From NCBI GenBank assembly GCA_001871815.1, contig MNVP01000075.1, positions 1 to 43,142 of the forward strand: a DNA stretch of 43,142 nt. Direction: 5' to 3'. The DNA comes from Candidatus Omnitrophica bacterium CG1_02_40_15 (GTDB lineage Bacteria > Omnitrophota > Gorgyraeia > Gorgyraeales > Gorgyraeaceae). Both the position numbers and the translations under genes were made by a program. The notes beneath the pieces are model-generated. The model ran no database searches. It saw only the letters and a program-made list of their open reading frames with translations, and was not told the origin of the DNA. Positions 4,771-43,142 of the stretch are shown piece after piece; within the stretch, counting starts at the first letter, position 1; every line of letters begins with the position of its first letter.

Positions 4771-5715
4771 ATGAATAAAATATGTTTTATTTTTCCATGC
4801 CAGGGATCGCAGTATGTGGGAATGGGGAAAAAGCTGTATGATAATTCTCCGGAAGCAAAAACTATATTTGACCAAGTAGAAAAAAATTTACCGGGATTAG
4901 ATCTAAAGAAACTTTGTTTTGAAGGCCCGATAGAAAAATTGACACAGACGGCAAACAGCCAAGTCGCGATACTTGTTACGAGCATCGCAGCTTTGCGGAT
5001 ATTAGAGACTGTAGGGACAGCACAATGGGCTGTCCCTACAGTGAAGGCGGGGCTAGTATGCTGCGCAGGGTTGAGTCTTGGGGAATATAGTGCGCTGGTT
5101 GCAAGCGGCGCATTGGAATTTTTAGACGCTGTAAGATTAGTTAGGCGAAGAGGGGAATTAATGGAACAAGCGGCTTTGAATAATCCAGGAACTATGGCGT
5201 CTATACTTGGGATTTCCGCAGAAGATCTGAAAGAAATTTGTAAAGAGACAGGGGCCGAAATAGCAAATCTAAATTGTCCGGGACAAATAGTTATATCAGG
5301 TAAAATTGAATCTGTCCAAAAAGCCATGGCCCTAGCTGAGCAAAAAGGCGCTAAAAAGGCAATTATATTAAATGTAAGCGGGCCTTTTCATTCATCATTT
5401 ATGAAAGAAGCTGCAAAGGAGTTTAAAAAAGAGCTTGGTAAAACAAAATTTTCCAGCCCCATGGTACCTATTGTAAGTAACGTTACAGCTGATTACGAAA
5501 AAACAGTTGATGAGATAAAAGAAAATCTTGTAAAACAATTATACAGCCCTGTGAGATGGGAAGAGTCTATACTAAAAATCAGCCAGGAAGGCTGCGATAC
5601 GTTTTTTGAGATAGGGCCCGGAAAGGTGCTTAAAGGATTATTGCGCAGGATAAATCCGGAATTAAAGGTTTATAATATAGAAACTGTGGAGGATATAAAT
5701 AATCTAACTTTGTAA
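4771..5715 (+). CDS. fabD: malonyl-CoA:ACP transacylase
   Basis: FIFPCQGSQYVGMG, nucleophile elbow GLSLGEYSAL, NCPGQIVISG, SGPFHSSFM, VRWEES. Carries in-frame palindrome A2. Confidence 0.9.
   Translation: MNKICFIFPCQGSQYVGMGKKLYDNSPEAKTIFDQVEKNLPGLDLKKLCFEGPIEKLTQTANSQVAILVTSIAALRILETVGTAQWAVPTVKAGLVCCAGLSLGEYSALVASGALEFLDAVRLVRRRGELMEQAALNNPGTMASILGISAEDLKEICKETGAEIANLNCPGQIVISGKIESVQKAMALAEQKGAKKAIILNVSGPFHSSFMKEAAKEFKKELGKTKFSSPMVPIVSNVTADYEKTVDEIKENLVKQLYSPVRWEESILKISQEGCDTFFEIGPGKVLKGLLRRINPELKVYNIETVEDINNLTL
5011..5039. repeat. Family A palindrome, copy A2 (inside fabD, in frame)
   Basis: GTAGGGACAGCACAATGGGCTGTCCCTAC, translated as VGTAQWAVPT. GTA is codon 81 of fabD. Confidence 0.9.
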
Positions 5716-7024: not shown

Positions 7025-7075
7025 GCCCCTACCGTTTTGATTCGCTTTGCGAATGCAAAACGAATCAGTAGGGGC
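7025..7075. repeat. Family C 51-nt hairpin, copy C1
   Basis: GCCCCTAC CGTTTTGATTCGC TTT GCGAATGCAAAACG AATCA GTAGGGGC. Its reverse complement is 49/51 identical to C2. Confidence 0.9.
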
Positions 7076-7138
7076 GAATTAATCCCGCCCTTTTAGCAAT
7101 TTTTCTCAGCTTGTTATTCAAAAGGGCGGGATAACTTC
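7076..7138. repeat. Family D hairpin, copy D1
   Basis: GAATTAATCCCGCCCTTTT-(25-nt loop AGCAATTTTTCTCAGCTTGTTATTC)-AAAAGGGCGGGATAACTTCGG. Matches D2. Confidence 0.85.
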
Positions 7139-7179
7139 GGCCAAATAAGTTACGTCGTTTCACTCCGTAACTTATGGCC
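7139..7179. repeat. Family E hairpin, copy E1
   Basis: GGCC AAATAAGTTACG TCGTTTCACTC CGTAACTTAT GGCC. Same stem as E2, and the loop motif TCGTTTCACTC is shared with E3 and F2. Confidence 0.85.
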
Positions 7180-12728: not shown

Positions 12729-12732
12729 GCAT

Positions 12733-12821
12733 GGTAGTCGCAACCTTTACCCCGTTAGATAGTAAACATCTAACGGGGTTTAGGTTGCGTAACATATCGC
12801 AGGCTAAAGCCTGCGGCTACC
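12733..12821. repeat. Family H-related composite hairpin, copy H1
   Basis: Outer stem GGTAGTCGC/GCGGCTACC encloses the hairpin GCAACCTTTACCCCGTTAGAT-AGTAAAC-ATCTAACGGGGTTTAGGTTGC and the hairpin CGCAGGCT-AAA-GCCTGCG. TTTACCCCGTTA/TAACGGGGTTTA ends are shared with H2. Confidence 0.8.
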
Positions 12822-12846
12822 GATAGCACAGAATATAGTATTTATA

Positions 12847-12881: not shown

Positions 12882-14573
12882 ATGCCTGATAAAAAGACAA
12901 GTCTTTTGGGCGAGATATTAATCCAGAAAAAACTGATTACCAAAGAGCAGCTGGAAGTTGGCTTGAATGAGCACAGAAAAACAGGGGAATTTTTAGGCGC
13001 GTCATTAATAAAGCTTGGTTTTATAAAGGAAAATGATTTATATAGCGCGCTTTCCAAGCAGTTAAATATCCCATATATTAAATTAAAAGAGCTTCAAATA
13101 GACGCAAAGATTTTTGAAAAACTTCCTGCCAAATTTACCTGCCACTATAAAGTCATGCCAGTAAAATTAGAAGAAGATACCCTGACTATTGCGACAAGGG
13201 ACCCATTAGATGTGAGGACGCTTGATGATATTAGGCTGTTTTCCGGGTTTAATGTGATTTTAGTTTTGGCAGCTGAATCTGATATATCCGAAGCTATTAG
13301 AAAATATTATGGGCTAGGCGCTGAAACAATAGAAGAGATTATAGATACAAGCGATAGGGACATGGTAATGCCTGAGACAAAAACAGAGACAATAGATGAA
13401 ATGGCAGAGGATGCGTCTATAATTAAATTTGTAAATCAGATCTTGCTTCAGGCGGTTAAGGATAATGCTACAGATATACATTTGGAGCCTTATGAAGGCG
13501 AACTTAAGACTAGATATAGGATAGACGGGGTGCTTTATGACATTCCTGTGCCAGAGGGTATAAAATATTTTCAATCTGCTGTTGTTTCCAGGATAAAGAT
13601 TATGTCTAATCTGGATATTGCAGAGCGGCGGCTTCCTCAAGATGGAAGGGTAAAGATCAGAGTAGGCGCTAATGAAATAGACCTTAGAATATCAATACTG
13701 CCAACCCAATTTGGAGAGAGCGTTGATATCAGAATTTTGAGCGGCAGTATGTTGTATAGTTTAGAAAAATTGGGGCTGCTGCGGCCTGACCTTGATATTT
13801 TAGAAAAACTTATAAAAAAGCCGCATGGCATTATTTTTGTTACAGGGCCTACAGGCAGCGGGAAAAGCACTACTCTTTATGCGTGTTTATCCAAGATAAA
13901 TAATAAAGATAGAAAGATTATTACGATAGAGGACCCTATAGAATATCAGATGAAAGGTATAACCCAGCTTCAAGTTCATCCAAGGATTGGATTGAGTTTT
14001 TCAACAGGCCTTCGTTCTATGCTCAGGCATGACCCTGATATTATGATGGTTGGGGAGGTAAGGGATTTTGAAACAGCCGAGATAACTATAAGAGTTGCGC
14101 TTACAGGGCATCTTGTATTTAGCACTTTACATACTAATGATGCCGCAGGTGGAATTACAAGGCTTCTTGATATGGGTATAGAGCCGTTTCTTGTGGCAAG
14201 TTCTGTAGAATGTTTTATTGCGCAGCGCCTTGTCCGAATTATTTGCCCTGGCTGTAAAATTGAGAAAAAGATAGATAAAAATATATTAGCCGAGTTTGGA
14301 ATAGAAAATAATACAGATAACATATCTGTATATGAAGGCAAGGGTTGCGATTCTTGTAAATTTACAGGGTATAAAGGCCGAACAGCCATATATGAATTCT
14401 TGCTTATGGATGAAGGCATTAGGGATTTAGTTTTAAAACGCGCTTCATCTGATCAAATAAAAAAGAAGGCCTTGGAATTCGGCATGCATACACTTCGCAT
14501 GGATGGCTGGGAAAAGATAAAAAAGGGCTTAACCACTATTAATGAAGTAATAAGGGTAACAGAAGAAGATTGA
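12882..14573 (+). CDS. gspE: type II secretion / type IV pilus assembly ATPase (GspE/PilB family)
   Basis: N-terminal MshEN/T2SSE_N-like domain, Walker A GPTGSGKST, Asp box, Walker B MMVGEVRD, His box, tetracysteine CPGC...CDSC. Confidence 0.9.
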   Translation: MPDKKTSLLGEILIQKKLITKEQLEVGLNEHRKTGEFLGASLIKLGFIKENDLYSALSKQLNIPYIKLKELQIDAKIFEKLPAKFTCHYKVMPVKLEEDTLTIATRDPLDVRTLDDIRLFSGFNVILVLAAESDISEAIRKYYGLGAETIEEIIDTSDRDMVMPETKTETIDEMAEDASIIKFVNQILLQAVKDNATDIHLEPYEGELKTRYRIDGVLYDIPVPEGIKYFQSAVVSRIKIMSNLDIAERRLPQDGRVKIRVGANEIDLRISILPTQFGESVDIRILSGSMLYSLEKLGLLRPDLDILEKLIKKPHGIIFVTGPTGSGKSTTLYACLSKINNKDRKIITIEDPIEYQMKGITQLQVHPRIGLSFSTGLRSMLRHDPDIMMVGEVRDFETAEITIRVALTGHLVFSTLHTNDAAGGITRLLDMGIEPFLVASSVECFIAQRLVRIICPGCKIEKKIDKNILAEFGIENNTDNISVYEGKGCDSCKFTGYKGRTAIYEFLLMDEGIRDLVLKRASSDQIKKKALEFGMHTLRMDGWEKIKKGLTTINEVIRVTEED

Positions 14574-14586
14574 TAGGATACTATAC

Positions 14587-14684
14587 TGTTCGAGCGGACA
14601 GGGTGACTAATTGACAAAGCCCAGTCGAGAACTTCTCGACTGAGCTTACATTTTATGCCAGCTATGTCCGCTCGAAGAATATTT
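14587..14684. repeat. Family B element, copy B3 (head-to-head dimer of half elements)
   Basis: TGTTCGAGCGGACA...GCCCAGTCGAGAAC | TTCTCGACTGAGC...ATGTCCGCTCGAAGAATATT. The left half is an inverted copy of the B 5' module. Confidence 0.8.
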
Positions 14685-15884
14685 ATGGCTAAATTTCTAT
14701 ATAAAGCAAAAACAGGGCCTGATAAAACCATAGAAGGAAATATTGAAGCAGATTCAGAGCAAATGGCTGCAAATAAATTAATGCAGTCAGGTTATTATCC
14801 TATATGGATCAAAAAAGAAACAGCTCAAGGTTCAGAGTTCAGGGTTCAAAGAATCAGGGCAAAAGAAATAGCCGCTTTTACAAGGCAGCTTTCGGAACTT
14901 TTAAATTCAGGTTTAGCGCTTTATAACTCATTAAATGTAATAGAGAATCAGACAGAAAATGCTCAGTTAAGATTAGTTATAAGGGGCATGAAGGATAGCA
15001 TAAAAGACGGGAACTCTTTTTCAGGTTCTTTAAAAAAATATCCAAATGTTTTTTCAGATGTGTATGTGAATCTTGTTAAGTCAGGCGAGGCAGGGAGCTT
15101 GCTCAATGAAGTGCTTGGGAATATAGCTGATTTTTTAGACAAAGAAGAAGATATGAAAGCCAAGATTATGGCAGCTTTATCTTATCCTATATTAATGGGC
15201 ATTGTAGGGGCCTTAACAATATTTATTTTAATAACATTTGTGGCGCCGAGATTAGTTAATATGCTTACTGATATGGGCCAAACCCTGCCATTAGCAACCA
15301 GGATTTTAATAGGCCTGAGCGATTTTATTAAGCGCTACTGGGTTTTGATAATTGTTTTTATAGGCGCCAGCGCGTTGCTGCTAAAAAGCGCTATGCAGCA
15401 GCCAGTTGTAAAAATGAATATAGACAGGTTAAAATTAAAACTTCCAGTTTTTGGAAACATGGTTAAACACGCAGAACTGGCAAGATTTACAAGAATGCTT
15501 TCAGCGCTTCTTAAGAACGGAGTGCCGATGTTAAGCTCTTTAAAAATAACATCCGGGATAATAGAAAATAGGATTATAAAAGAAGATTTGGATTTCATTC
15601 ATGATGATGTTAAGGCAGGTTCTACTTTAGCGCTGGCTATAAAGAAAAGAAAAAATTTTCCAATACTTATATCTAACATGACTGCGGTGGGCGAACAAGG
15701 CGGTTTTTTAGACAGGATGTTATTAAACATTGCTCATACATATGAAGTTGAGCTGGATAGGATTGTTAAAGTAATTACATCTCTTCTGGAACCTATTTTT
15801 ATTTTGGCAATCGGATTGGTGGTGGGTTTTATTGTTATTGCAATGCTTTTACCGATATTTCAGATATCGCTTACAGCGCATTAA
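14685..15884 (+). CDS. gspF: type II secretion platform protein (GspF/PilC family)
   Basis: MAKFLYKAKTGPDKTIEGNIEA N-terminus, two T2SSF repeats, three TM segments. Start set to ATG 14685 because ATG 14655 lies in repeat B3. Confidence 0.9.
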   Translation: MAKFLYKAKTGPDKTIEGNIEADSEQMAANKLMQSGYYPIWIKKETAQGSEFRVQRIRAKEIAAFTRQLSELLNSGLALYNSLNVIENQTENAQLRLVIRGMKDSIKDGNSFSGSLKKYPNVFSDVYVNLVKSGEAGSLLNEVLGNIADFLDKEEDMKAKIMAALSYPILMGIVGALTIFILITFVAPRLVNMLTDMGQTLPLATRILIGLSDFIKRYWVLIIVFIGASALLLKSAMQQPVVKMNIDRLKLKLPVFGNMVKHAELARFTRMLSALLKNGVPMLSSLKITSGIIENRIIKEDLDFIHDDVKAGSTLALAIKKRKNFPILISNMTAVGEQGGFLDRMLLNIAHTYEVELDRIVKVITSLLEPIFILAIGLVVGFIVIAMLLPIFQISLTAH

Positions 15885-15887
15885 TAT

Positions 15888-15979
15888 AGCTGTAAGCGAT
15901 AAGCCGTAAGTTTTAAGCTATAAACAAAAAATAAAATTTCAAGCTTTTCTTACAGCTTAAAGCTTATAACTTACAGCTT
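15888..15979. repeat. Family G heptamer hairpin, copy G3 (empty form)
   Basis: 5' arm GCTGTAA GCGATAA GCCGTAA GTTTTAA GCTATAA, an 18-nt A-rich loop, then 3' arm TTCTTAC AGCTTAA AGCTTAT AACTTAC AGCTTAA. The 3' arm is nearly identical to G4b. Confidence 0.8.
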
Positions 15980-15998
15980 AATTTATGGAGGTTTTAAC

Positions 15999-16412
15999 AT
16001 GAGAAATAAAAATGGTTTCACGTTAATTGAACTTATGCTAGTCGTTATTATTATCGGTGTTTTAGTTTCAATGGTAGTACCTCGGCTTGCAGGCCGCTCG
16101 GAAGAAGCAAGGATAGCTGCGGCAAAAGCAGATATACGCTCTAATATTTCAGTAGCGCTTGATCTTTTTGAGCTTGATAACGGGAAATACCCTACTACTG
16201 AAGAAGGCTTATCCGCATTGAGAACAAAGCCTGGGTCAGCTTCGAACTGGAAAGGCCCATATCTTAAAAAAGAACCTGTAGATCCATGGGGCAAAAAATA
16301 TGCGTATCGTTCGCCAGGGGAACATAATCCTGATTATGATCTTTACTCTTATGGGTCCGATGGCGCAGAAGGCGGCAGCGATGATATCACTAATTGGGAA
16401 GAAAAGAAGTAG
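15999..16412 (+). CDS. gspG: major pseudopilin GspG
   Basis: MRNKNG|FTLIELMLVVIIIGVL prepilin site, DNGKYPTTEEGL, GSDGAEGG. GGAGG RBS. Confidence 0.9.
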   Translation: MRNKNGFTLIELMLVVIIIGVLVSMVVPRLAGRSEEARIAAAKADIRSNISVALDLFELDNGKYPTTEEGLSALRTKPGSASNWKGPYLKKEPVDPWGKKYAYRSPGEHNPDYDLYSYGSDGAEGGSDDITNWEEKK

Positions 16413-16749
16413 CGGGTTTTTGTTTGTTGAGTTATTAATAAGCGTTTTAATAATGTCCGTCGGTTTGATATTAATATTGAATTCGTTTATCCAATCTTTA
16501 AGGGCGATAGAATATTCAGACGATTATTTTAAAGCATGCCTTTTCTTAGAGGACAAGGCATTCGAGGTTTATAATAGCGACAAGAAAGAGGGTTTTTCGA
16601 AAGGCTCATTTAATGATTTTAATGATAAGTTTTCATGGGAATTAAATGTGGCAAAATTAGAAGAAGCTGGCCTTAATGAAATTTCCCTAAAAGTAATGTG
16701 GTATGAAAGAAATAAAGAACACGATGTGCCTATTTTTACATACTTATGA
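16381..16749 (+). CDS. minor pseudopilin, GspI-like
   Basis: KKRSSG|FLFVELLISVLIM prepilin-type N-terminus and about 120 aa in size. Start ATG 16381 is inferred and overlaps the gspG end. Confidence 0.6.
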   Translation: MISLIGKKRSSGFLFVELLISVLIMSVGLILILNSFIQSLRAIEYSDDYFKACLFLEDKAFEVYNSDKKEGFSKGSFNDFNDKFSWELNVAKLEEAGLNEISLKVMWYERNKEHDVPIFTYL

Positions 16750-17402
16750 GAAAAAGTGGTTTTACCCCATTACAAATTTTAAAGGATTCTGATAGGTTGA
16801 TAGGTCGTCATAGAAAATTTGTAACGGGGTTTACCTTTATAGAGCTTATAGTTTCGATTTCAATATTAGCTATAATAGCTGCTTCGATATATAGCGCTTT
16901 TAATATAGGGCTACAGGCATATAAAAGGTCATCCGCAGATGAGGGAACTCAAAAAATCAGGACAAAGCTTGCTAAAATAGATAAAGAGCTTAAAAATTCT
17001 TTCTTTTTTTCTGAAATACCCTTTAGTGGCACATCCTCAGAAATTGTTTTTCCATCAGTTGTCTTTAAAGAAGATGTAGAAAAAATCTACATAGTCACTT
17101 ATTATATAGAGAAAGATAAAAATAAAGATTTTTTTAGGCTTATAAGGAAGGCGAAAATTTATACTGATAATCCTCAGGATGAAAAAGAAGAGATAACCGA
17201 CGTATTCTCCGCAATATCCATTAAGTTTAAATATGCATATAAATCAAGCGGCCCTTCTAAAGGTTATGAATGGCAGGAGGCATGGGGAGAAGATCAGAAA
17301 ACGCTTCCTTCTGGGGTTAGGATTTTTTTTCAAATAGATGATGGAGGCGAGATTTACAATAAGACCATTTTTCTTATGCAGGGAGCATTAGGGGCAAAAT
17401 GA
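16746..17402 (+). CDS. minor pseudopilin, GspJ/GspH-like, with repeat-expanded leader
   Basis: G|FTFIELIVSISILAIIAA prepilin-type segment. ATGA coupling to the previous gene. The leader carries inverted-repeat element H2. Confidence 0.6.
   Translation: MRKSGFTPLQILKDSDRLIGRHRKFVTGFTFIELIVSISILAIIAASIYSAFNIGLQAYKRSSADEGTQKIRTKLAKIDKELKNSFFFSEIPFSGTSSEIVFPSVVFKEDVEKIYIVTYYIEKDKNKDFFRLIRKAKIYTDNPQDEKEEITDVFSAISIKFKYAYKSSGPSKGYEWQEAWGEDQKTLPSGVRIFFQIDDGGEIYNKTIFLMQGALGAK
16758..16835. repeat. Family H inverted-repeat element, copy H2 (inside the pseudopilin leader, in frame)
   Basis: GGTTTTACCCCATTACAAATTTT ... AAAATTTGTAACGGGGTTTACC. The GFT codons are duplicated at both ends (GGTTTTACC / GGGTTTACC). 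Confidence 0.85.
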
Positions 17403-25122: not shown

Positions 25123-25127
25123 AAGTC

Positions 25128-25191
25128 CGAACTTATCCCGCCCTTTTAGCGATTGTTTCAGCTTGCTATTCAAAAGGGCGGGATTAATTCG
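25128..25191. repeat. Family D hairpin, copy D2
   Basis: CGAACTTATCCCGCCCTTTT-(loop AGCGATTGTTTCAGCTTGCTATTC)-AAAAGGGCGGGATTAATTCG. Confidence 0.85.
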
Positions 25192-25195
25192 CACA

Positions 25196-28736: not shown

Positions 28737-29093
28737 ATGGCTTACACATTTAAGAATATAAAAGTTTGGGATAAAGCTCATAAGTTAGTTTTGGAAATAT
28801 ATAAAGCGACAAGAAATTTCCCAACGGAAGAAAAATATGGTTTGATAGCGCAACTTAGGAGATCGGCAGCTCCTATACCTACGAATATAGTAGAAGGTTA
28901 TAAAAGAAAAAGTGATAAAGATTTTTTACATTTTCTTAATATAGCCGATACATCTTTAGAAGAAACAAAATATCATTTACTTTTGAGTTACGATTTGAAT
29001 TATTTGAAAAAGAATGAATATGAAAGATTATTAGATTTAATGGACGAAGTTGGAAAGATGCTTTTTGGCTTCCAACAAAAGCTTAAAGCTTAA
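28737..29093 (+). CDS. four-helix-bundle protein (23S rRNA intervening-sequence protein / Avd-like family)
   Basis: KAHKLVLEIYKATRNFPTEEKYGLIAQLRRSAAPIPTNIVEGYKR...FLHFLNIADTSLEETKYHLLLS, recognised as the TIGR02436-type family. Confidence 0.8.
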   Translation: MAYTFKNIKVWDKAHKLVLEIYKATRNFPTEEKYGLIAQLRRSAAPIPTNIVEGYKRKSDKDFLHFLNIADTSLEETKYHLLLSYDLNYLKKNEYERLLDLMDEVGKMLFGFQQKLKA

Positions 29094-29111
29094 AGCTTAT
29101 AACTTAAAGCT
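29080..29111. repeat. Family G heptamer arm, copy G4b (3' arm)
   Basis: AGCTTAA AGCTTAA AGCTTAT AACTTAA AGCT. Complementary to G4a at 27 of 32 positions. Contains the stop of the four-helix-bundle gene and ends 7 nt before the smc ATG. Confidence 0.8.
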
Positions 29112-29118
29112 GAAAAAC

Positions 29119-32100
29119 ATGTATTTCAAATCCTTAGAATTATTCGGTTTCAAATCATTCGCTGATAAGACAAGGTTGGATTTTGAGCCTGGCATTACTG
29201 CTATTGTGGGGCCCAATGGCTGCGGAAAATCTAATATTGCCGACAGCATAAAGTGGGTACTCGGAGAACAATCTGCAAAGGTCTTGCGCGGCGGCAAAAT
29301 GGAAGACGTTATATTCAACGGCACTGACGGCAAGGAACCTGTGAGTTTCGCGGAAGTTTCCCTCACGCTTTCCAATCAGGATAGGGCGCTTGCAATAGAA
29401 TACGACGAAGTTACTGTCACCAGGCGCCTCTATCGCTCAGGAGAGAGCGAGTATCTTTTAAATAAAACTCCGGTCCGGCTTAAGGATATAAATGAGCTTT
29501 TCATGGGCACTGGCATAGGCACAAGCGCTTATTCTATTATTGAACAGGGCAAGATAGACCAGGTCTTGAGCTCGAAGCCAGAGGAAAGGCGTGAGGTCTT
29601 TGAAGAGGCGAGCGGCATTACAAAATACAAGGCAAAAAAGAAAGAGGCATTGCATAAACTGGAAGATACAGAACAAAATCTATTAAGGATAAATGATATC
29701 ATAGTAGAAGTAAAGCGCCAGATCAATTCAATAGAACGCCAGGCGAAGAAGGCAGAGCGCTATAAAGAGCGCTACGAAGAATTGAAGTCAATTGAATTGA
29801 AGCTCTCGAGAATAGACCTTGAGATATTGAGAAGCAAGAACTTGAATTCCGAAAGGGATACAAGCGAGTTAAATCAGAAAGAAGCAGAGCTTAATTTAGA
29901 ATTAAATAGCTTGTCCGAGGACCTGTCATTATTAAACAAGGATAGCTCCCATGTGGAAAATAAAAGAGTGAACCTGAAATCCAGAATAGTAGAACTTAAT
30001 TCTGAAATCTCAAAAGCCAGCAATAAGATATCTATGGATAAAGAAAGGGTGGACGAGCTTACAAAGCGCCGCTCAGGCCTTGAGGCTGAGATAAAAAAAA
30101 GCGAAGACATACTTATATCTCAAGAAAAGGAGATAGCTAATCTCAAGGAAAAGATATCTACGCTGGAAAAGGAAGATAGCGCGAGGTTCAGCAAGGTAAC
30201 AGAAAAAGAAAAAAGATTCGAAGAGATATCAAAGGCAATAAAAACAAGCGAAACAACATTGTCCAATTCGAAGGCAAATATCATAGATATTGCTTCAAGA
30301 CAGGCGAAGCTGAGAAACCAGGTGGCGAAGATATCCACTACTATTTCAACCCACGACTCAAGGCTCAAGAGGCTGGAATCAGAAAAATCAACTGTCTTAG
30401 AGGAAAAAAATAACCTGCAAGCTAAATTAAACGAAATCCTGGCAGAAATAACAGCAATTGAAAAAGAAGCAGCCAGCCTTAAACTAGAAAGAGATTCTGT
30501 ATCTGGTTCCGTATCAGCTATCCGAAGCCATATAAACTCGCTTACAGAAGAATCCAAAAAAATAGAGGCGCTCCTGGCGTCCAATAAATCCAAATTAGAA
30601 TTTTTGGAAGAGGCAAGGCTTAAATACGAAGGGTTTTCCGCAGGCGTAAAGGCAATACTTGGAAGCCAGTCAAGGATAGACGGCGTCAGGGATTGCCTTG
30701 CAAATCTGTTAACAGTCAAAAAAGGCTATGAGGCTGCAATAGAAACAGCAATGTCTGAGTATCTGCAAAGCATAGTAGTTGATACTATGGAATCTGTGGA
30801 TAATGCTATAGCATATCTTAAAGAACATTCATACGGCAAGGCCTCATTTATATATCCAGGGTATTTTAACGTAGGGACAGCACAATGTGCTGTCCCTACC
30901 GAGCAGATGGCGGTTTCCGAAGTCGAAAATTATAACGACAGCCGCATCCTTGGCAAGGCAGCTGATTTTGTAAATGCAGGAGATTCTTATAAAAATATCT
31001 TGAGGTATATATTGAAAGATGTTTTTATAGTAAATGACCTTAAGGACGCAAGGGCTCTTTTGGATAATACCAAGGGGCCTGCGAGGTGCAGGTTTATTAC
31101 TTTGTCAGGTGAGGCGGCCGAGAATGGGTTCATAACAGGCGGGAGCTCTAAAAAGGAAGAGCTTGGCCTGATAAATAGAGACGCCAGGATAAATGAGATC
31201 CGTCAAATGGTTAGTGAACTGGAAGGCCATTCGCGAAAACTTGAAGAAGAAAGGTTAGAGAAAGAAAAAGAAGAGAACGAATTGAAAACTAAATTTGAAG
31301 CGCTTACAAACGTAATTAACGAAAAAGATATACTATTTGCTAATGCCTCTACCAGCAGATCCAATATAGAAGAAAATATGAAAGGCCTGGGGGATGAGAT
31401 ATCGCTTGTGAACCTTGAGATAGATGAAGTGAATTCTGAAATCCTGATTCTGAAACAGGAAGAAGATGCTTCTCTTAAGACGCTGTTAGAGCTTGAGAAT
31501 GAAACCAAGATTAATGAAGAAAGGATACGCAGCAGCGAAGCCCTTATAACAGAATGCGCAAAAGAAAGAGAACAGCTTCTTGTAGAGATCGCGGAGGCAA
31601 GGACCGAGCTGGGGTCGCTCGAAAGCAAAAAGGAAGGCCTGTCGAGCACGTTGAATATACTGGAATCATCTTTGCGTGATGCCAGAAATAACGTAGAGTC
31701 CAGAAAGCTGGAAATAACGAGCTCTATTAAAAAGGGAGATGCGCTAATCGTAGAGATAAAAGAATTTGAAAAAAACATAACTGTCCTGTCGGAAGAAGGT
31801 TCCGGGAGGAATAAAGAATTGAGCGAGGTAGAGGCCGTATATTCCGAGATAACAGAAAAAACAGCGTCTTACGAAACTAAATCCAAAGAGATAGAAAACC
31901 AGATAAATAGTATAAGGTCAAAGATGCATTCTGTGGACTTACAGAAGGCGGAGGTGAATTACAGCATAGAAAACCTGACTCAACGCATAAGGGATGTTTA
32001 CAAAACTGAGCTTTTGGAATTCGAGCTGCCAGAGGATTGGCAGGTTTTAGATAAAGCTGCCCTGAAAAATAATGTAGAGGAAATGCGCAATCACTTGGAT

Positions 32101-32745
32101 TCAATGGGCGCGGTAAATCTGGTAGCTATAGATGAGAATAAAGAGCTTCAGGATAGGTTTATATTTTTGACAACCCAGAGAGATGACTTATTAAAGGCAA
32201 AAGACAGCCTGCTGGAGGCAATTAATAAAATAAATAAAACAACAAAAGAGCTCTTTATGGAGACATTCAAGAATATTCAAGTGGAATTCAGGAACTTCTT
32301 CAAAATGCTTTTCGGAGGAGGAGATGGGGAACTCATGCTCCTGGATGATGACAATGTGCTTGAGTGCGGGATTGAAATAGTCGCGAGGCCTCCCGGGAAA
32401 AGGCTTCAAAATGTTTCGCTTCTTTCAGGGGGAGAAAAAGCCCTTACCGCAGTAGCTCTTATATTCGCAATATTTAAAGTAAAGCCAAGCCCATTCTGTG
32501 TTCTGGATGAAATAGACGCGCCTCTTGACGAATCAAATGTTGACAGATTTTCAAGAAGCCTCGATATGTTTACAAATACATCTCAATTCATTGTTGTAAC
32601 CCACAATAAAAAGACCATTGATAAGGCTGATGTGATGTATGGCATTACCATGCAGCAGTCTGGCGTATCAAAGGTCGTCTCAGTCAAATTTTCAGATTCA
32701 AAGAAACAGGAAGCGGTTGAACAGCAAGTGGAGCCGAAGGTTTAA
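29119..32745 (+). CDS. smc: chromosome partition protein SMC
   Basis: MYFKSLELFGFKSFADKT, Walker A GPNGCGKSN, long coiled coils, hinge, LSGGEKALTAVALIFA, Walker B FCVLDEIDAPLD. Start ATG 29119. Carries in-frame palindrome A3 in the hinge region. Confidence 0.9.
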   Translation: MYFKSLELFGFKSFADKTRLDFEPGITAIVGPNGCGKSNIADSIKWVLGEQSAKVLRGGKMEDVIFNGTDGKEPVSFAEVSLTLSNQDRALAIEYDEVTVTRRLYRSGESEYLLNKTPVRLKDINELFMGTGIGTSAYSIIEQGKIDQVLSSKPEERREVFEEASGITKYKAKKKEALHKLEDTEQNLLRINDIIVEVKRQINSIERQAKKAERYKERYEELKSIELKLSRIDLEILRSKNLNSERDTSELNQKEAELNLELNSLSEDLSLLNKDSSHVENKRVNLKSRIVELNSEISKASNKISMDKERVDELTKRRSGLEAEIKKSEDILISQEKEIANLKEKISTLEKEDSARFSKVTEKEKRFEEISKAIKTSETTLSNSKANIIDIASRQAKLRNQVAKISTTISTHDSRLKRLESEKSTVLEEKNNLQAKLNEILAEITAIEKEAASLKLERDSVSGSVSAIRSHINSLTEESKKIEALLASNKSKLEFLEEARLKYEGFSAGVKAILGSQSRIDGVRDCLANLLTVKKGYEAAIETAMSEYLQSIVVDTMESVDNAIAYLKEHSYGKASFIYPGYFNVGTAQCAVPTEQMAVSEVENYNDSRILGKAADFVNAGDSYKNILRYILKDVFIVNDLKDARALLDNTKGPARCRFITLSGEAAENGFITGGSSKKEELGLINRDARINEIRQMVSELEGHSRKLEEERLEKEKEENELKTKFEALTNVINEKDILFANASTSRSNIEENMKGLGDEISLVNLEIDEVNSEILILKQEEDASLKTLLELENETKINEERIRSSEALITECAKEREQLLVEIAEARTELGSLESKKEGLSSTLNILESSLRDARNNVESRKLEITSSIKKGDALIVEIKEFEKNITVLSEEGSGRNKELSEVEAVYSEITEKTASYETKSKEIENQINSIRSKMHSVDLQKAEVNYSIENLTQRIRDVYKTELLEFELPEDWQVLDKAALKNNVEEMRNHLDSMGAVNLVAIDENKELQDRFIFLTTQRDDLLKAKDSLLEAINKINKTTKELFMETFKNIQVEFRNFFKMLFGGGDGELMLLDDDNVLECGIEIVARPPGKRLQNVSLLSGGEKALTAVALIFAIFKVKPSPFCVLDEIDAPLDESNVDRFSRSLDMFTNTSQFIVVTHNKKTIDKADVMYGITMQQSGVSKVVSVKFSDSKKQEAVEQQVEPKV
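30871..30899. repeat. Family A palindrome, copy A3 (inside smc, in frame)
   Basis: GTAGGGACAGCACAATGTGCTGTCCCTAC, translated as VGTAQCAVPT. GTA is codon 585 counted from ATG 29119. Confidence 0.9.
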
Positions 32746-33965: not shown

Positions 33966-33971
33966 ACATAT

Positions 33972-34088
33972 GATCTTCGGGAGAGGGTGAAATTCCCCAC
34001 CGGTAGTATAGTCTACGAGCTTTGCTATAGCAGGGCAGATCCGGTGTAATTCCGGAACCGATTGTGAAAGGCTAGATGGTAGAAGAGT
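33972..34088 (+). promoter_or_regulatory. FMN riboswitch (RFN element) aptamer
   Basis: TCTTCGGGAGAGGGTGAAATTCCCCACCGGTAGTATAGTCTACGAGC...CAGATCCGGTGTAATTCCGGAACCGATTGTGAAAGGCTAGATGGTAGAAGAG matches the conserved RFN cores and sits upstream of ribBA. Confidence 0.85.
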
Positions 34089-34113
34089 TTTTATATATTC
34101 TGCATATTTTCAT

Positions 34114-34189: not shown

Positions 34190-34301
34190 GAATTAATCCT
34201 GAAGACACGACATTGCTGGTGCGACGAATAAGGAGCACCGTTTAGCAAACCTGCCGAGATGTGAGGCAGGTGGAGTGTCTTTAGGATATCGAGACCATAT
34301 C

Positions 34302-35495
34302 ATGAAATTCAATACAATACCTGAAATTATTAAGGATCTGAGAAAAGGCAAGATGGTCATTGTTGTGGATGACGAAGATCGCGAGAACGAGGGAGACCTT
34401 GTTATTGCAGCCAGTTTTGCTGCGCCTTCAGCGATTAATTTCATAATAAAGTATGCCAGGGGGCTTGTGTGTATGCCCATGGAAGGCGAAAGGCTTGATG
34501 AACTTGGGCTGCATCCAATGTTTGAGGACAATCAGGATACTTTTAAGACTGCATGGGCTATCTCTGTGGACGCTAAAAAAAGGACAACTACAGGTATATC
34601 CGCTCATGATCGCTCAGTTACTATAAAGGACCTTATAAATCCTAGTACAAAACCCGATGATCTTGCAAGGCCTGGCCATGTATTTCCTTTGCGGGCAAAA
34701 GATGGCGGAGTTTTAACGCGAGCGGGCCATACAGAGGCATGCGTTGATTTGATGAAGCTGGCAGGATTGTATCCGGCAGGGGTTATATGCGAGATAATAA
34801 ATGATGATGGCACTATGGCCAGGCAGAAAGACCTGGTAAAATTTTCAAAAAAATATAAACTTAAAATATGCACGATCGCCAGTTTAATTAATTACAGGCG
34901 GAAATCAGAGAGGCTTGTGACTTGTATTGCCTCCAGCCAAATCCCTACAGATTACGGGATGTTTAAATTATATCTTTATGAATCAAGTATTGATAAATAT
35001 CAGCATATAGCGCTTGTAAAAGGCGATGTGAAAGGAAAAAGAGATGTTTTAGTGCGCGTACATTCAGAATGCCTTACAGGCGATATATTTGGCTCTAGAA
35101 GATGCGATTGCGGGGAACAGCTTCGTAAGACTATGAGGCTTATAGGAGAAAGGCCAAGAGGCGTTCTTTTATATATGAGGCAGGAAGGCCGCGGCATAGG
35201 GCTGGTGAATAAGATAAAGGCATATACGCTGCAGGATAAAGGCTTTGATACAGTAGAGGCAAATGAACAGCTTGGTTTTAAGCCGGATTTGAGAGATTAT
35301 GGCATAGGCGCTCAAATATTAGCAGACTTGGGGTTGAAGACAATCCAGCTTATTACAAATAATCCGCGCAAGATAGTGGGTTTATCAGGTTATGGACTGG
35401 AGGTGGTAAAAAGGGTTCCTATGGAAGTGCAGCCTAATAGCGCTAATAAGAGGTATCTGGAAACCAAAAAGAAAAAATTAGGGCATCTTATTTAA
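34302..35495 (+). CDS. ribBA: bifunctional DHBP synthase / GTP cyclohydrolase II
   Basis: [43 protein letters not shown]. Start ATG 34302 ([10 protein letters not shown]). Confidence 0.9.
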
Positions 35496-36013: not shown

Positions 36014-36042
36014 GTAGGGACAGGACAATGTCCTGTCCCTAC
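36014..36042. repeat. Family A palindrome, copy A5
   Basis: GTAGGGACAGGACAATGTCCTGTCCCTAC, between ribH and nusB. Confidence 0.9.
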
Positions 36043-37492: not shown

Positions 37493-38617
37493 ATGAAGAG
37501 ACATGAATTTTTTATGAGAAAGGTTTTGGAGCTGGCTGAAAAAGGTAAGGGAACTACCAGCCCTAACCCTATGGTAGGCGCGTTGGTCGTAAAGAATGGG
37601 AAAATTATAGTAAGCGCTTATCATAGACGGCCAGGAGGCCTGCACGCAGAGGCTATCGCGCTAAAAAGAGCTGGCCAGAAGGCAAAAGGCGCGACGCTTT
37701 ATGTGAATCTTGAGCCATGCGCCCATTTAGGAAGAACGCCTCCATGCTCAAAGGCAATTATAAAAAGCGGTATAAAAGAGGTTTATTGCTCGATGATTGA
37801 CCCGAATCCTTTGAATAATGGAAAAGGCAAAAAGGAATTAGAGAAAAATGGCGTTAACGTTAGAGTGGGGATTTTAGCTGAAGAAGCAGCAAAGTTAAAT
37901 GAAGTTTTTATAAAATATGTTACAAAGAAGATGCCTTTTGTGACAATAAAGGTTGCCGAGTCTCTGGACGGCAAGATAGCTACAAGGACAATGGATTCTA
38001 AATGGATTAGTTCAGAGGCCTCCAGGGATTATTCGCACAGTCTGCGCAGCGAGATGGATGCTGTGCTTGTGGGCGTGAATACAATAATGAGAGATAACCC
38101 GATCCTGACTTCAAGAAGGAATAAGTCACCTATAAAGATAGTGTTAGATTCAAATCTAAGGGTTTCTGAAAACGCAAATATCTTTTCAAAAAAGTCTCCA
38201 GCCTTGAATATAGTAGCGATTTTAAAGAAATCATTAAAGGCCCCGCATATATTGAAAAAAGTAGAGAGATTTAATAAAAGAGGGATTCTCATTGTAGCGT
38301 GCCCTGGCAAGAATAACAGGATTGACCTGGAATGGCTTTTAAAAGAGCTGGCAGAACTTGAGATCAGCCGCTTATTAGTAGAAGGCGGAGGCGATACTAT
38401 AGCAGGATTTTTAGAGCAAGGATTTGTGGACAGAGTTTTATTTTTTATAGCTCCGAAGATCATAGGCGGCAGGAATGCAGTGACTTCTGTTGAAGGTAGA
38501 GGCGTAGGTAAGGTAAGCTATGCTATAAAATTGAAAAATGTGAAAGTTGAAATGATCGGCGGCGAAGATATTTTAATCAGCGGTAAGCCCAACAACTTGA
38601 CAAATCAACAATGTTGA
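37493..38617 (+). CDS. ribD: bifunctional riboflavin biosynthesis deaminase/reductase
   Basis: HAEAIAL plus EPCAHLGRTPPC deaminase zinc motifs. Reductase part KVAESLDGKIA...VEGGG. The last 9 codons and the stop lie within a 47-nt palindrome. Confidence 0.9.
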   Translation: MKRHEFFMRKVLELAEKGKGTTSPNPMVGALVVKNGKIIVSAYHRRPGGLHAEAIALKRAGQKAKGATLYVNLEPCAHLGRTPPCSKAIIKSGIKEVYCSMIDPNPLNNGKGKKELEKNGVNVRVGILAEEAAKLNEVFIKYVTKKMPFVTIKVAESLDGKIATRTMDSKWISSEASRDYSHSLRSEMDAVLVGVNTIMRDNPILTSRRNKSPIKIVLDSNLRVSENANIFSKKSPALNIVAILKKSLKAPHILKKVERFNKRGILIVACPGKNNRIDLEWLLKELAELEISRLLVEGGGDTIAGFLEQGFVDRVLFFIAPKIIGGRNAVTSVEGRGVGKVSYAIKLKNVKVEMIGGEDILISGKPNNLTNQQC

Positions 38618-38634
38618 TTTGTCAAGTTGTTGGG
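38588..38634. repeat. perfect 47-nt palindrome (23-nt arms)
   Basis: CCCAACAACTTGACAAATCAACA A TGTTGATTTGTCAAGTTGTTGGG spans the ribD 3' end and the ribD-ribE gap. Confidence 0.9.
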
Positions 38635-40894: not shown

Positions 40895-41940
40895 TAATAA
40901 TAGTTAATTTAGTAGGTTTTTTTATTATAGCTATCCTGATATTATTTTTTAACAAAAAGGCTAGAGAGTCTGCGTCAAAGGAGAGCGAAGAAAAGATAAA
41001 TACTCTTCGCAGCGAATGGAGCGATACGCTTTCTAAAAATACAGAGCTTATTTTAAAACAGCTTAATGAAAGCGCCAAGGTCCAGCAGATGGTAAGCTCC
41101 AGTATGGGCGAGAGGTTTGATAACGCGGCAAAGGTTTTCGGCGATGTGAAAAAAAGCCTTGGTTCCCTGGATGAAAAAACCCAGCAGATTTACGAGGTTG
41201 GCAAAGATATAGCGAGTTTACAGGAAATACTCAAAGCCCCTAAAATGAGAGGCGGGCTCGGAGAGCTGTTTCTGGAATCGCTTCTTGAGCAGATAATGCC
41301 TCATAAGGATTTTTATGAGCTTCAGCATTGTTTTAAGACAGGCGAGAGGGTGGATGCTGCCATCAAGATAGGGACCAGGCTTGTGCCTGTGGATTCAAAA
41401 TTTCCGCTGGAGAGTTTTAAGAGGTTTGTAGACGCGCAAAATGACGATGATAAAAAGCGCGCAAAAAGGGAGTTTACAAAAGCAGTTAAAGACCATATAG
41501 ATTCTATCGCAGATAAATATATACTTCCGGATGAAGGCACGTATGACTTTGCGCTGATGTATATACCTGCTGAGAATGTCTATTACGAAACAATCATAAA
41601 GGATGAAGTTTTTGGAGAAGAAAAGTCCATATTCAGCCACGCCATATCCAAAAAAGTAATACCTGTATCGCCGAATAGTTTTTATGCGTACCTGCAGGTG
41701 ATTATCCTTGGCATGAAAGGGTTGAAGGTAGAAGAAAAGGCGCAAGAAGTGATAAAGATGCTCATTACTTTGAAAGGTTCTCTTGGGAAATTCACAGAGG
41801 ATTTCGAAGTAATAGGGACTCATATCGACAATATAAAATCAAGCTATGAAAGGGCAGTAAAAAGTTTGGATAAATTCGAAGATAAACTGCTCTCGGCAGA
41901 TTCGCTGGAAGAAAAAAATAAAATTGAGAACAAAGGATAG
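40891..41940 (+). CDS. rmuC: DNA recombination protein RmuC
   Basis: N-terminal TM, coiled coil, RGGLGELFLESLL, VDAAIKIGTRLVPVDSKFP, MYIPAENVYYE. ATGA overlap with the upstream stop. Confidence 0.85.
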   Translation: MIIIVNLVGFFIIAILILFFNKKARESASKESEEKINTLRSEWSDTLSKNTELILKQLNESAKVQQMVSSSMGERFDNAAKVFGDVKKSLGSLDEKTQQIYEVGKDIASLQEILKAPKMRGGLGELFLESLLEQIMPHKDFYELQHCFKTGERVDAAIKIGTRLVPVDSKFPLESFKRFVDAQNDDDKKRAKREFTKAVKDHIDSIADKYILPDEGTYDFALMYIPAENVYYETIIKDEVFGEEKSIFSHAISKKVIPVSPNSFYAYLQVIILGMKGLKVEEKAQEVIKMLITLKGSLGKFTEDFEVIGTHIDNIKSSYERAVKSLDKFEDKLLSADSLEEKNKIENKG

Positions 41941-43142
41941 AGGAGGGTTTAAAACCCTTCTCTACAAAGGATTTGGTACGGGGCGTAGCGCAGTTGGCTA
42001 GCGCGCTTGCTTCGGGAGCAAGAGGTCGCTGGTTCGAATCCAGCCGCCCCGACCACATCGGATTTGACGCATTTTCTGAGGAAAAAGAGGGATTTTTAAA
42101 ATCTTTTTGGGCGAAAAATTCTTTATCGTAAGTGCTTATGTATTCGAGAGTTAAATCAAATGGCTTTTTGAAATCTAAAATCACTTTTTTATCCAGCAGG
42201 CGGCGGTTCGTTCCAATTTTTTCCATAAAAATTTTTATTTCATAAAAATTTTGCGACGAAGCAAGTTTTTCGGCGTGGTGAGCAGTTTTTATCCACTCCC
42301 GCAATGGTTCGATCCAAAGATTACCCTTTCGCCCAAAATCTGCCTTTTTCTGCATAAACTCTGCTTTAGACCTTACAATATCATCTTTCTTAGACAGGTA
42401 AATCTCTTTATCAATGTCGCCATCAAGAAAGGCATTCACTAACTTATCAAGCTTTGCGTCTATTTCTTTAATCTTTATTTGCAGATTTTGGGCGAAAGTT
42501 TGCGAAGACTGAGCAGTATCTTTTTCCCATATATCTACTTGAGCTAGCATCTTTTCTGTCCAGTCTTCGCAAAGGGCGACTTTTGAAATAGCTTGCTTTA
42601 ATTGAGCAATAACCAAGTCTTCTCTTAGATATCTCTGACTACAGGGGCCAAGCCGTTTAGTGCAGCGGTAGTATATATAAGTACCGCCATTTCCATGAGC
42701 ATACTGAGCAGTTATTGCTGCGCCACACTCGCCACATCTTAAAAGCCCAACGAATGGAAAGTTATGACCTTTTTTATTCTTTCTCGGCTTGGCCCTATCT
42801 TTCAGAACTCTCTGAACAGCTTCAAAAGTCGCTCGGGAAACTATCGGCTCGTATTTACCTTCATAAGCTTCGCCATGATAGTCTATCACGCCTATATAAG
42901 CTGAGTTAGTTAGAGTACCTTGAAGCGTAGATTTACAGATCTTCGTTCCATTCCTGCTCACCACGCCGAAAAAACTCAGACGCTCACCCAAACTCGCTAA
43001 AGTATGCTTTCCAGCGGCAAACTCTTCGAAAACTTTCTTTATTATTTTTGCTTTTACCGGGTCTGGTTCGATGTTTCTGGTCTTGGGGTTATTCACATAA
43101 CCAAGAGGAGCTAAACTAAGCCATTCACCGCGTCTGAGTTTT
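41792..43142 (-). CDS. large serine recombinase, C-terminal two thirds (catalytic domain beyond the window); 3' end reads through the tRNA
   Basis: Frame is open to the window edge (KLRRGEWLSLAPLGYVNNPKT... = start of the recombinase domain). Zinc ribbon LRCGECGAAITAQ...YYRCTKR and a coiled coil. There is no stop before the tRNA, and WSGRLDSNQRPLAPEASALANCATPR is the antisense translation of tRNA-Pro. Confidence 0.8.
   Translation of the reverse strand, partial: KLRRGEWLSLAPLGYVNNPKTRNIEPDPVKAKIIKKVFEEFAAGKHTLASLGERLSFFGVVSRNGTKICKSTLQGTLTNSAYIGVIDYHGEAYEGKYEPIVSRATFEAVQRVLKDRAKPRKNKKGHNFPFVGLLRCGECGAAITAQYAHGNGGTYIYYRCTKRLGPCSQRYLREDLVIAQLKQAISKVALCEDWTEKMLAQVDIWEKDTAQSSQTFAQNLQIKIKEIDAKLDKLVNAFLDGDIDKEIYLSKKDDIVRSKAEFMQKKADFGRKGNLWIEPLREWIKTAHHAEKLASSQNFYEIKIFMEKIGTNRRLLDKKVILDFKKPFDLTLEYISTYDKEFFAQKDFKNPSFSSENASNPMWSGRLDSNQRPLAPEASALANCATPRTKSFVEKGFKPSSILCSQFYFFLPANLPRAVYLRIYPNFLLPFHSLILYCRYESLLLRNPL
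41979..42055 (+). tRNA. tRNA-Pro (anticodon CGG), CCA encoded
   Basis: Acceptor CGGGGCG/CGCCCCG, D arm GCGC-AGTTGGCTA-GCGC, anticodon arm CTTGC-TTCGGGA-GCAAG, variable AGGTC, T arm GCTGG-TTCGAAT-CCAGC, discriminator A, CCA. Confidence 0.9.

Follow-up and report, generated by a model that had tools for sequence, protein, structure and literature searches.

The locus examined lies on contig MNVP01000075.1 of Candidatus Omnitrophica bacterium CG1_02_40_15 (GCA_001871815.1, from groundwater metagenomes), the whole 43,142 nt of which were analysed and are referred to as the window. The window includes a type II secretion / type IV pilus-like operon, in which the leader of a GspJ-like minor pseudopilin gene contains a short palindromic mobile element, here called copy A. 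The open reading frame (ORF) of the pseudopilin overlaps the preceding ORF (16300-16749) through an ATGA and has been called as 201 or 218 aa, depending on the source. Its product begins MRKSGFT-PLQILKDSDRLIGRHRKFVTGFT-FIELIV, matches Pfam N_methyl at residues 27-49 (E = 5e-6, above the cut-off) and T2SSJ weakly, and has orthologues at 45-89% identity. The type IV prepilin signature is present as Gly(-1), Phe(+1), Glu(+5) and a hydrophobic helix, with G/FTFIELIV (the slash marking the cleavage site) invariant across the orthologues. The components of the gene start are as follows.

16746..17402, + strand: GspJ-like minor pseudopilin gene, ORF starting at the ATG of an ATGA, which also holds the stop codon of the upstream ORF
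16746..16760, + strand: original leader codons M-R-K-S-G, the same as the entire leader of the empty allele P0003/L002
16758-16760, + strand: original Gly(-1) codon, GGT
16761..16764, + strand: left target-site duplication, TTTA, from alignment of empty and filled alleles
16765..16829, + strand: copy A, a 65-nt non-autonomous palindromic element of subfamily A with arms CCCCATTACAAATTTT / AAAATTTGTAACGGGG (left arm 16765-16780, loop 16781-16813, right arm 16814-16829)
16797..16799, + strand: alternative TTG start in the loop, which would give the leader M-IGRHRKFVTG
16827..16835, + strand: predicted working G-F-T codons GGG TTT ACC, where the N_methyl match begins
16830..16833, + strand: right target-site duplication, TTTA, from the same alignment

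The inverted repeat of copy A (16764-16780 / 16814-16830) is 17 nt long with one mismatch (94% complementary) and encloses a 33-nt spacer. Comparison of its RNA fold with shuffled sequences gave z = -2.2 for the + strand and z = -4.0 for the - strand, the latter being stronger because the single A.C mismatch becomes G.U there. The predicted hairpin has an energy of -22 to -23 kcal/mol and starts 19 nt past the start codon. The initial annotation of this DNA had proposed an inverted-repeat element within the pseudopilin leader, and the arms and fold bear this out. The proposed size of 66 nt is corrected to 69 nt, consisting of the 65-nt element and a 4-bp TTTA duplication, which together form 23 stop-free codons. 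The repeated G-F-T had been read as the target duplication. A direct repeat does surround the insert (GGTTTTACC / GGGTTTACC, 8/9 bases), but the duplicated sequence proper is TTTA, and the second-site glycine codon GGG is the final three bases of the element, where the first site has GGT. The duplication reads as TTTACC because the element itself begins with CC, and Thr-Gly-Phe-Thr is rebuilt in front of the hydrophobic N-terminus because the element end ...ACGGGG is followed by the duplicated TTTA(CC).

The window pseudopilin was compared with 13 homologues. At 89% identity over the mature part, the empty orthologue P0003/L002 reads MRKSGFTFIELIV, and alignment of the DNA gave a clean gap of 69 nt. 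The N-termini of P0003 and P0005-P0010 are MRK[SN]GFTFIELIV, without the insert, while P0002 (91% identical in the mature part) contains the same 23 extra residues as the window and P0004 (75% identical) a different insert of 17 residues at the same point. At the DNA level the empty site is GTGGT-TTTA-CCTTTATAG and the window site is GTGGT-TTTA-CCCCATTAC...GTAACGGGG-TTTA-CCTTTATAG. Positions 16765-16829 are a transposable element inserted at TTTA within the GGT-TTT-ACC of a GspJ-like pseudopilin, with duplication of the TTTA. The close empty alleles support the earlier proposal of an insertion, as opposed to an inherited leader, and the short ATGA-coupled leader predicted to result from removal of the insert exists in nature in P0003. 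The comparison of orthologues suggested at that time returned the exact 69-nt gap in P0003.

A second copy of the element, copy B, is located after the protease gene. The termini TTTACCCC(A/G)TTA ... TAACGGGGTTTA are common to copy A and to 12746-12782, and none of 100 shuffles contained the paired pattern, in agreement with the recurrence noted in the initial annotation.

12746..12782, + strand: copy B, consensus type, TTTA + CCCCGTTAGATagtaaacATCTAACGGGG (12750-12778) + TTTA
12732..12827, + strand: 96-nt block between the protease gene and gspE, missing from relatives in alignment with L004 and L005

Copy B is 29 nt long and shares its termini in full with copies of 275-291 nt described below. 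A palindromic element of an unrelated kind (GGTAGTCGCAACC-TTTA-GGTTGCG...CGCAGGCTAAAGCCTGCGGCTACC) makes up the 96-nt block, and copy B is nested within it, in the TTTA loop of the first hairpin.

Both copies belong to a family that spans many phyla, consistent with the second repeat family suggested previously. Species-representative genomes were scanned for TTTACCCCRT-N(36-66)-AYGGGGTTTA, which gave at least 120 stretches; the matches listed span Omnitrophota, Planctomycetota, many Patescibacteria, Desulfobacterota, Nitrospirota, Cloacimonadota, Elusimicrobia and others. The family consensus is TTTA-CCCCGTTAGA...TCTAACGGGG-TTTA, with the hallmark termini CCCCGT(TAGA)...(TCTA)ACGGGG. The terminal bases outside the search pattern were 87-94% conserved (CCCCGTTAGA(A/G)(A/G)...TCTAACGGGG), the interiors variable and the stems typically 12-14 bp. 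Lengths were mostly 47-78 nt in the sample taken and range from ~29 to >200 nt. One match (L049:3200-4182) was discarded as an accidental match to a CRISPR array of a Kiritimatiellae metagenome-assembled genome (MAG), the repeat of which contains GGGGTTTACCCC / CCACGGGGTTTACCCCGTGG.

The target preference is strongly TTTA, and the next base was C in 48% of sites compared with 17% in the background; an extended palindromic target GG-TTTA-CC was unsupported, with only the C after TTTA enriched. Copies at other targets were flanked by identical 4-mers (TATG, TAGA, TATA, TCCA, TGTA, TTCA, TCAG, CGAG and TGAA), and this matching on both flanks indicates that the 4-bp target duplication is genuine. 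Interiors 90-94% identical to one another were found within unrelated flanks, and judged from these sequences the copies are discrete mobile units. Long ORFs contained 58 of 136 copies, with lengths that were a multiple of three in 53 of the 58. The copies outside long ORFs were distributed 30/28/20 over the three length classes, giving no multiple-of-three bias. Three of the six frames cross the termini without a stop, which results in the recurrent peptides FTPLE...LTGF, YPVR...SNGVY and NPVR...SNGVK. Rfam at gathering and permissive thresholds gave no family at the hairpin of copy A or copy B, and the family was not found in PLSDB plasmids or in viral contigs. Neither full-text literature searches nor a survey of the GIY-YIG superfamily gave any account of the family, of its presence in prepilin leaders or of GIY-YIG genes with inverted repeats on either side, so the family is apparently undescribed.

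Prepilin leaders are a frequent site of these elements. A further scan of the same type of genomes, for the right terminus with a prepilin N-terminus behind it and requiring G-F-T at the second site, gave at least 132 prepilin sites that carry a copy at the G-F-T codons. Both arms were present in 115 of these copies; 102 had lengths that were multiples of three and 95 were free of stops from the first site onwards. Several of the 20 copies with stops displayed an internal methionine and a new leader rich in lysine and arginine. The first site was still G-F-T in 73 of the 115 and had decayed in ~37% (AFT, SFT, RFT, GLA or similar), and retention of G-F-T at the second site is not independent evidence because the search required it. 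All occupied sites in one sample used GGG for Gly(-1), and the unoccupied ones used GGT, GGC, GGA or GCN, save two that apparently bear degenerate copies. Approximately half of TTTAC-type prepilin sites were occupied, compared with ~4% of other TTTAC sites, in loci chosen for carrying elements.

Prepilin peptidase would cut the window precursor at the second G/F, so that the mature protein would start at the phenylalanine encoded from 16830 and the whole insert would depart with the cleaved leader. Translation would start at the coupled ATG (16746) and read through the hairpin, with TTG 16797 as a possible second start. The precursor is therefore predicted to remain a substrate of prepilin peptidase at the second G/F. 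Loss of the insert with the leader would make the insertion nearly neutral, and it is probably harmless. The initial annotation had suggested that the leader is a tolerated landing site with the second G/FT as the working one, and the frame statistics, the decay of the first site and the position of the N_methyl match all point in this direction.

Subfamily A, to which copy A belongs, was examined through two scans for CCCCRTWMCAAATTYTAAAGG. Relatives of 101-103 nt were located in three further unrelated prepilin genes (L153, L154 and L158), the first of which reads MKNTKGFTPLQILKDS...VTGFTLIELV, and a copy was also present in L009, an orthologue of the window pseudopilin. The remaining copies were in the start codon of bioD (L148:4064-4166 and L157:326-430) and at intergenic locus L151, in both cases with TGAA duplicated. 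Prepilin leaders account for five of the seven subfamily-A loci. Copy A corresponds to the 101-nt L153 copy minus 36 nt between ATTCT repeats, the remainder being 95% identical. In the bioD copy the last G of the element and the TGAA recreate a GTG start, and the element has an in-frame ATG inside it. The upstream G-F-T reads GGGCTTGCCCC (G-L-A) in L001:2845-2860 and L154 (minus strand), and also in L032, L055 and L136. Two unrelated prepilin genes with subfamily-A copies share this G-L-A site through the same two transitions, either independently or via gene conversion. In the leader of a more distant orthologue of the pseudopilin (L016:1400-1460) lies a different palindrome, rich in G+C (MTKNRIPSPPLGEREKVRGEGFTFIELI), from which it follows that the leader also admits other repeat families.

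The only gene found in the long members of the family encodes a small nuclease. Copies of 275-291 nt with consensus termini contain a single gene, for an 86-aa GIY-YIG nuclease, the last four codons of which (...S-L-T-G) lie in the right terminus; its stop codon comes mostly from the duplicated target (TAAA or TGAA). The ORF matched Pfam PF01541 with E = 1.5e-16 (60.9 bits, cut-off 22.6), and the nearest solved relative was the UPF0213 protein BH0048 (PDB 1ZG2, E = 6e-9). A protein search with the nuclease alone gave 3945 relatives at E <= 1e-8, of which the best were 70-90% identical across phyla and most were exactly 86 aa long. Among the best 120 of the 3945, 107 end in ...RFLSLTG, which is the translation of the right terminus, and 76 of these 107 stop directly after it. 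Clustering of the tight cross-phylum set at 50% gave four clusters.

Copies of 275-280 nt with the same termini and flanks were found inside prepilin leaders at L163, in two adjacent pilins, and at L194. These long copies contain a small but complete GIY-YIG ORF that continues across the right terminus and into the pilin, and P0285 (MKLHSTYNHASGFSLIELMIGLGLL), an orthologue of the L163 pilin, represents the empty allele of a GIY-YIG copy. The termini and flanks of long copies were also read in DNA at non-pilin sites, and a long copy and a hairpin copy occurred together in one MAG. GIY-YIG ORFs fused in frame 5' of prepilin N-termini were observed in L163 (Yanofskybacteria), L194:2563-2842 (Ratteibacteria) and L259, as well as in P0140, P0141 and P0149, an example of the junction being ...KRFLSLTG/FTFLEISLV.

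These observations suggest that the short hairpins are non-autonomous relatives of the long GIY-YIG units and that the GIY-YIG nuclease mobilises the family. The nuclease would make a staggered cut at the target in trans, and host repair or ligation would complete the insertion. The explanation favoured overall combines insertion of the element, shedding of the insert with the leader, and hairpins as non-autonomous relatives of nuclease units acting in trans, and is considered very probable. It supports the interpretation of the initial annotation and extends it by the scale of the family and the link to GIY-YIG. A more specific proposal is put forward tentatively, as a serious possibility that falls somewhat short of probable: the hairpins may be non-autonomous members of an unrecognised transposon class with an autonomous form of ~280 bp, 14-bp termini, an 86-codon GIY-YIG driver, a TTTA-supplied stop codon and a haven in prepilin leaders, the nuclease being made as a leader in L163, L194, P0141 and P0149. 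The stop codon of the autonomous form's gene would come from the target duplication (TTTA read as TAAA), and in those four cases prepilin peptidase would release the nuclease into the cytoplasm.

Several observations weigh against this explanation. Of the six long copies read in DNA, two had perfect flanks, three agreed in 3/4 bases and one in 2/4. The termini of copy A diverge from those of the GIY-YIG copies after approximately position 8, leaving only the outermost CCCC(A/G)T...ACGGGG shared, and comparison of the copy A interior with the GIY-YIG copies gave no detectable similarity (z near 0). GIY-YIG copies with subfamily-A termini were not seen, and the 43-kb window contained none. GIY-YIG nucleases are not known to carry out strand transfer, transposition or 4-nt staggered cutting, and for this reason mobilisation by the nuclease is a conjecture. 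The insert is 88% identical between the window and L001, compared with 89-93% for the remainder of the operon; having diverged no faster than the operon, it does not demonstrate relaxed constraint. Logan contigs of four groundwater runs contained the filled allele only, and no population polymorphism was found there. Finally, the over-representation of prepilins was estimated from element-selected samples and is biased accordingly.

The shared termini could also be explained if the hairpins are ordinary miniature transposable elements with inverted repeats (MITEs) moved by a DDE transposase, for example IS1380- or IS5-like, with the GIY-YIG gene as a passenger or as a separate selfish gene that has the same termini. 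A 4-bp target duplication together with terminal inverted repeats is a hallmark of DDE transposition, and both are present here; termini starting with CC and a duplication of 4-5 bp recall IS1380 and piggyBac, a resemblance that is a lead only. The sharing of no more than the outermost bases between subfamily A and the GIY-YIG copies also fits this explanation. However, a long autonomous or DDE-type element with the family termini was not found in ~1.96 Mb of fetched loci, a weak argument since MAG assemblies often break at insertion sequences, and the ORFs adjoining unpaired element ends included no transposase. In addition, the GIY-YIG ORF is built into the termini, through its last four codons and the stop from the duplication, in 107 of the best 120 homologues. 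Movement by a DDE transposase appears rather unlikely.

A second alternative concerns translation of the window gene, which might start at TTG 16797 and leave the upstream ATG, the first G-F-T and the left arm as untranslated 5' sequence in front of an 11-residue leader. Gene callers chose this start (P0001, 201 aa), and an AGGA (16783-16786) is positioned ten nt 5' of the TTG, within the hairpin loop. Approximately 17% of prepilin-borne copies have stops or are out of frame, and several contain an internal methionine, including the copy in the orthologous L009. Against this, neither the first G-F-T nor the TTG survives in the sister sequence L001, where the latter is replaced by TTA, while the whole frame of L001 remains open from the upstream ATG; L001 must use that ATG, which makes it the likelier start in the window as well. 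The ATGA coupling at the upstream ATG is also intact. Among prepilin-borne copies, 89% have a length divisible by three and 83% lack stops, and such a filter is understandable only with translation that usually comes from the original start. One start does not exclude the other, and use of the TTG alone is regarded as a lesser, though appreciable, possibility.

It is improbable that the insert has been co-opted, with the mRNA hairpin or the longer leader regulating the amount or timing of the minor pseudopilin, although this could account for the frequent occupancy of leaders. The stable hairpin near the start codon, the high occupancy of TTTAC-type prepilin sites and the concentration of subfamily A in leaders all speak for such a role. 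Close orthologues nevertheless manage without the insert, the interiors and lengths of leader copies vary freely, and the same elements occur in many unrelated genes and in intergenic DNA. The stems show no compensatory changes, as the window copy and the L001 copy each have one uncompensated transition, and the occupancy estimate is biased by the choice of loci.

The history of the site was derived from a tree of the mature part, which gave the topology (L003 +51 nt, (L002 empty, (L001 +69, window +69))). On a distant branch the sister of L009 (+107 nt) is L010, which is empty and 87% identical to it, and the distribution of filled and empty orthologues therefore requires at least three gains or precise losses at the same nucleotides of one gene family. 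After the insert, the window and L001 differ by 17 synonymous and 18 non-synonymous codon changes. The proposal that the long leader is ancestral, or the gene a decaying pseudogene, and that relatives deleted the segment is very improbable indeed and appears close to refuted by the empty alleles, the tree and the duplicated 4-mers: the TTTACC direct repeats that flank the segment make slippage deletion mechanically possible, but most orthologues, outgroups included, have the empty site, the segment is bounded by termini and a target duplication that it shares with a dispersed family, the ORF is unbroken with a mature protein 91% identical to L001, and precise loss in L002, though possible, could only be secondary to an insertion.

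Insertion of a mobile hairpin that is shed with the leader and moved in trans by a nuclease unit remains the preferred explanation. If the role of the nuclease is correct, the long copies would represent a new enzymatic class of transposon and rank with the smallest known autonomous elements. The family is abundant, extends across phyla, is translated inside many proteins and is tied to a minimal GIY-YIG gene. Many of the odd long prepilin-like N-termini in Omnitrophota, Planctomycetota and Patescibacteria are insertions of this type (...GFTPLE...(F)LTGFT...) and not features of the pilins, and such insertions mislead the calling of start codons, as with the 201 and 218 aa versions of the gene examined here. 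The case is also a natural experiment on the kind of upstream sequence that a prepilin peptidase tolerates.

The surrounding operon contains the following genes.

12882-14573: GspE
14655-15884: GspF
15999-16412: GspG, followed by a small pseudopilin
Further members beside the GspJ-like gene: a GspK-like gene, PilM/N, PilO and a secretin

The gap between gspF and gspG is occupied by an imperfect inverted repeat (15879-15987) with 39-nt arms that are 77% complementary and rich in CTTACAGC / GCTGTAAG motifs. Elsewhere in the window, a GTAG-tagged family of palindromes resembling repetitive extragenic palindromic (REP) sequences (GTAGGGACAGNACA / TGTNCTGTCCCTAC) occurs at 838-866, 5008-5042, 30871-30899 and 36014-36042; two of these copies are at or just past ORF stop codons, and the one at 30871-30899 is within an open SMC gene (29050-32745). 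Another inverted-repeat element, with arms ...ATCCCGCCCTTTT / AAAAGGGCGGGAT..., is present in opposite orientations at 7072-7142 and 25125-25194. An FMN riboswitch (33969-34091, Rfam RF00050, 94.8 bits) precedes the riboflavin genes (ribBA 34275-35495, ribH and ribD), and a perfect 23-bp palindrome, CCCAACAACTTGACAAATCAACA / TGTTGATTTGTCAAGTTGTTGGG, lies at 38588-38634 across the 3' end of a ribD-like ORF. A large serine recombinase ORF (Recombinase + Zn_ribbon_recom, 41792-43096, - strand) reaches the end of the window and overlaps a tRNA (41979-42052, + strand), and the two may mark the edge of an integrated element.

The family was compared with known classes of repeats and mobile elements, several of which were rejected. 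REP/RAYT palindromes (20-40 nt with a GTAG or CGTC tag) differ in that the family has no such tag, has duplicated flanks and includes many intragenic copies. IS200/IS605-type elements, which insert 3' of a fixed tetra- or pentanucleotide and duplicate no target, do not account for the variable duplicated 4-mers, and the ends of the family pair with each other, with no separate subterminal hairpins. The heptamers are reversed relative to integron attC sites (GTTAGAT 5' and ATCTAAC 3', where attC has RYYYAAC...GTTRRRY), and there is no cassette array. A serine-recombinase site with a central TT, which the joined ends would resemble (...ACGGGGT-TT-ACCCCGT...) and at which strands are exchanged over the central dinucleotide with no duplication of the target, was rejected on the variable and duplicated flanking 4-mers and on a left target flank without half-site similarity. 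A homing endonuclease gene was rejected on the inverted repeats, the duplicated 4-mers and the unrelated loci of the copies.

Prepilin peptidases process long leaders, including those of type IVb prepilins, and the 28-residue leader in the window, which ends in glycine and is followed by F-T-x-x-E and a hydrophobic helix, is within the range of lengths processed. One difference is that the extra leader of the window was not inherited with the pilin class but inserted recently, an orthologue with 89% identity over the mature part being without it. The likeness to piggyBac and IS1380, again only a lead, extends to CC(C) termini, a T/A-rich duplicated target of 4-5 bp and possible precise excision; those elements encode a large DDE transposase, whereas none with the family termini was found in the fetched loci. 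The GIY-YIG catalytic core is shared with the homing endonucleases I-TevI and Seg and with UPF0213/YhbQ-like proteins (PMC1564403), and genes of this type are characteristic of selfish elements. Homing endonucleases cleave the cognate empty allele, rely on homologous repair and have DNA-binding extensions, without inverted repeats or target duplication, while the GIY-YIG gene of the family is a bare core framed by 14-bp inverted repeats and a 4-bp duplication at unrelated sites.

Compared with MITEs, the family has the small size (65 nt for copy A and 29 nt for copy B, without coding capacity), the inverted repeats (copy A arms of 16-17 nt, one mismatch), the target duplication (empty and filled alleles, and nine non-TTTA duplicated 4-mers) and the dispersal (many copies with related interiors at unrelated sites), and by its structure agrees with MITEs in every respect except a proven autonomous partner. 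Known MITEs such as Correia/CREE, ERIC and MITEAba12 are non-coding, originate from DDE insertion sequences and are generally confined to one genus or species (PMC10969869, PMC3184786). Terminal inverted repeats, target duplication, multiple copies and occasional intragenic or cotranscribed positions are common to both. Unlike classical MITEs, the family has no DDE partner that could be found, ~14 terminal bases are conserved across phyla, and the only coding relatives carry a GIY-YIG gene.

Rickettsia palindromic elements (RPEs) are ~100-150 bp long, known only from Rickettsia and without a known enzyme partner (a 2000 study, as reviewed in PMC10969869). Membership in the RPE sequence families is implausible given the host phylum, Omnitrophota, and the size of 65 nt. 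The family differs from RPEs in its defined termini, its 4-bp duplication, its spread over many phyla and its longer nuclease-bearing relatives. The two are alike, as judged by description, in being short palindromes inserted in frame, free of stops and translated as extra peptide segments in many unrelated proteins, and in its behaviour the family is closest to these elements and to intragenic MITEs (PMC10969869).

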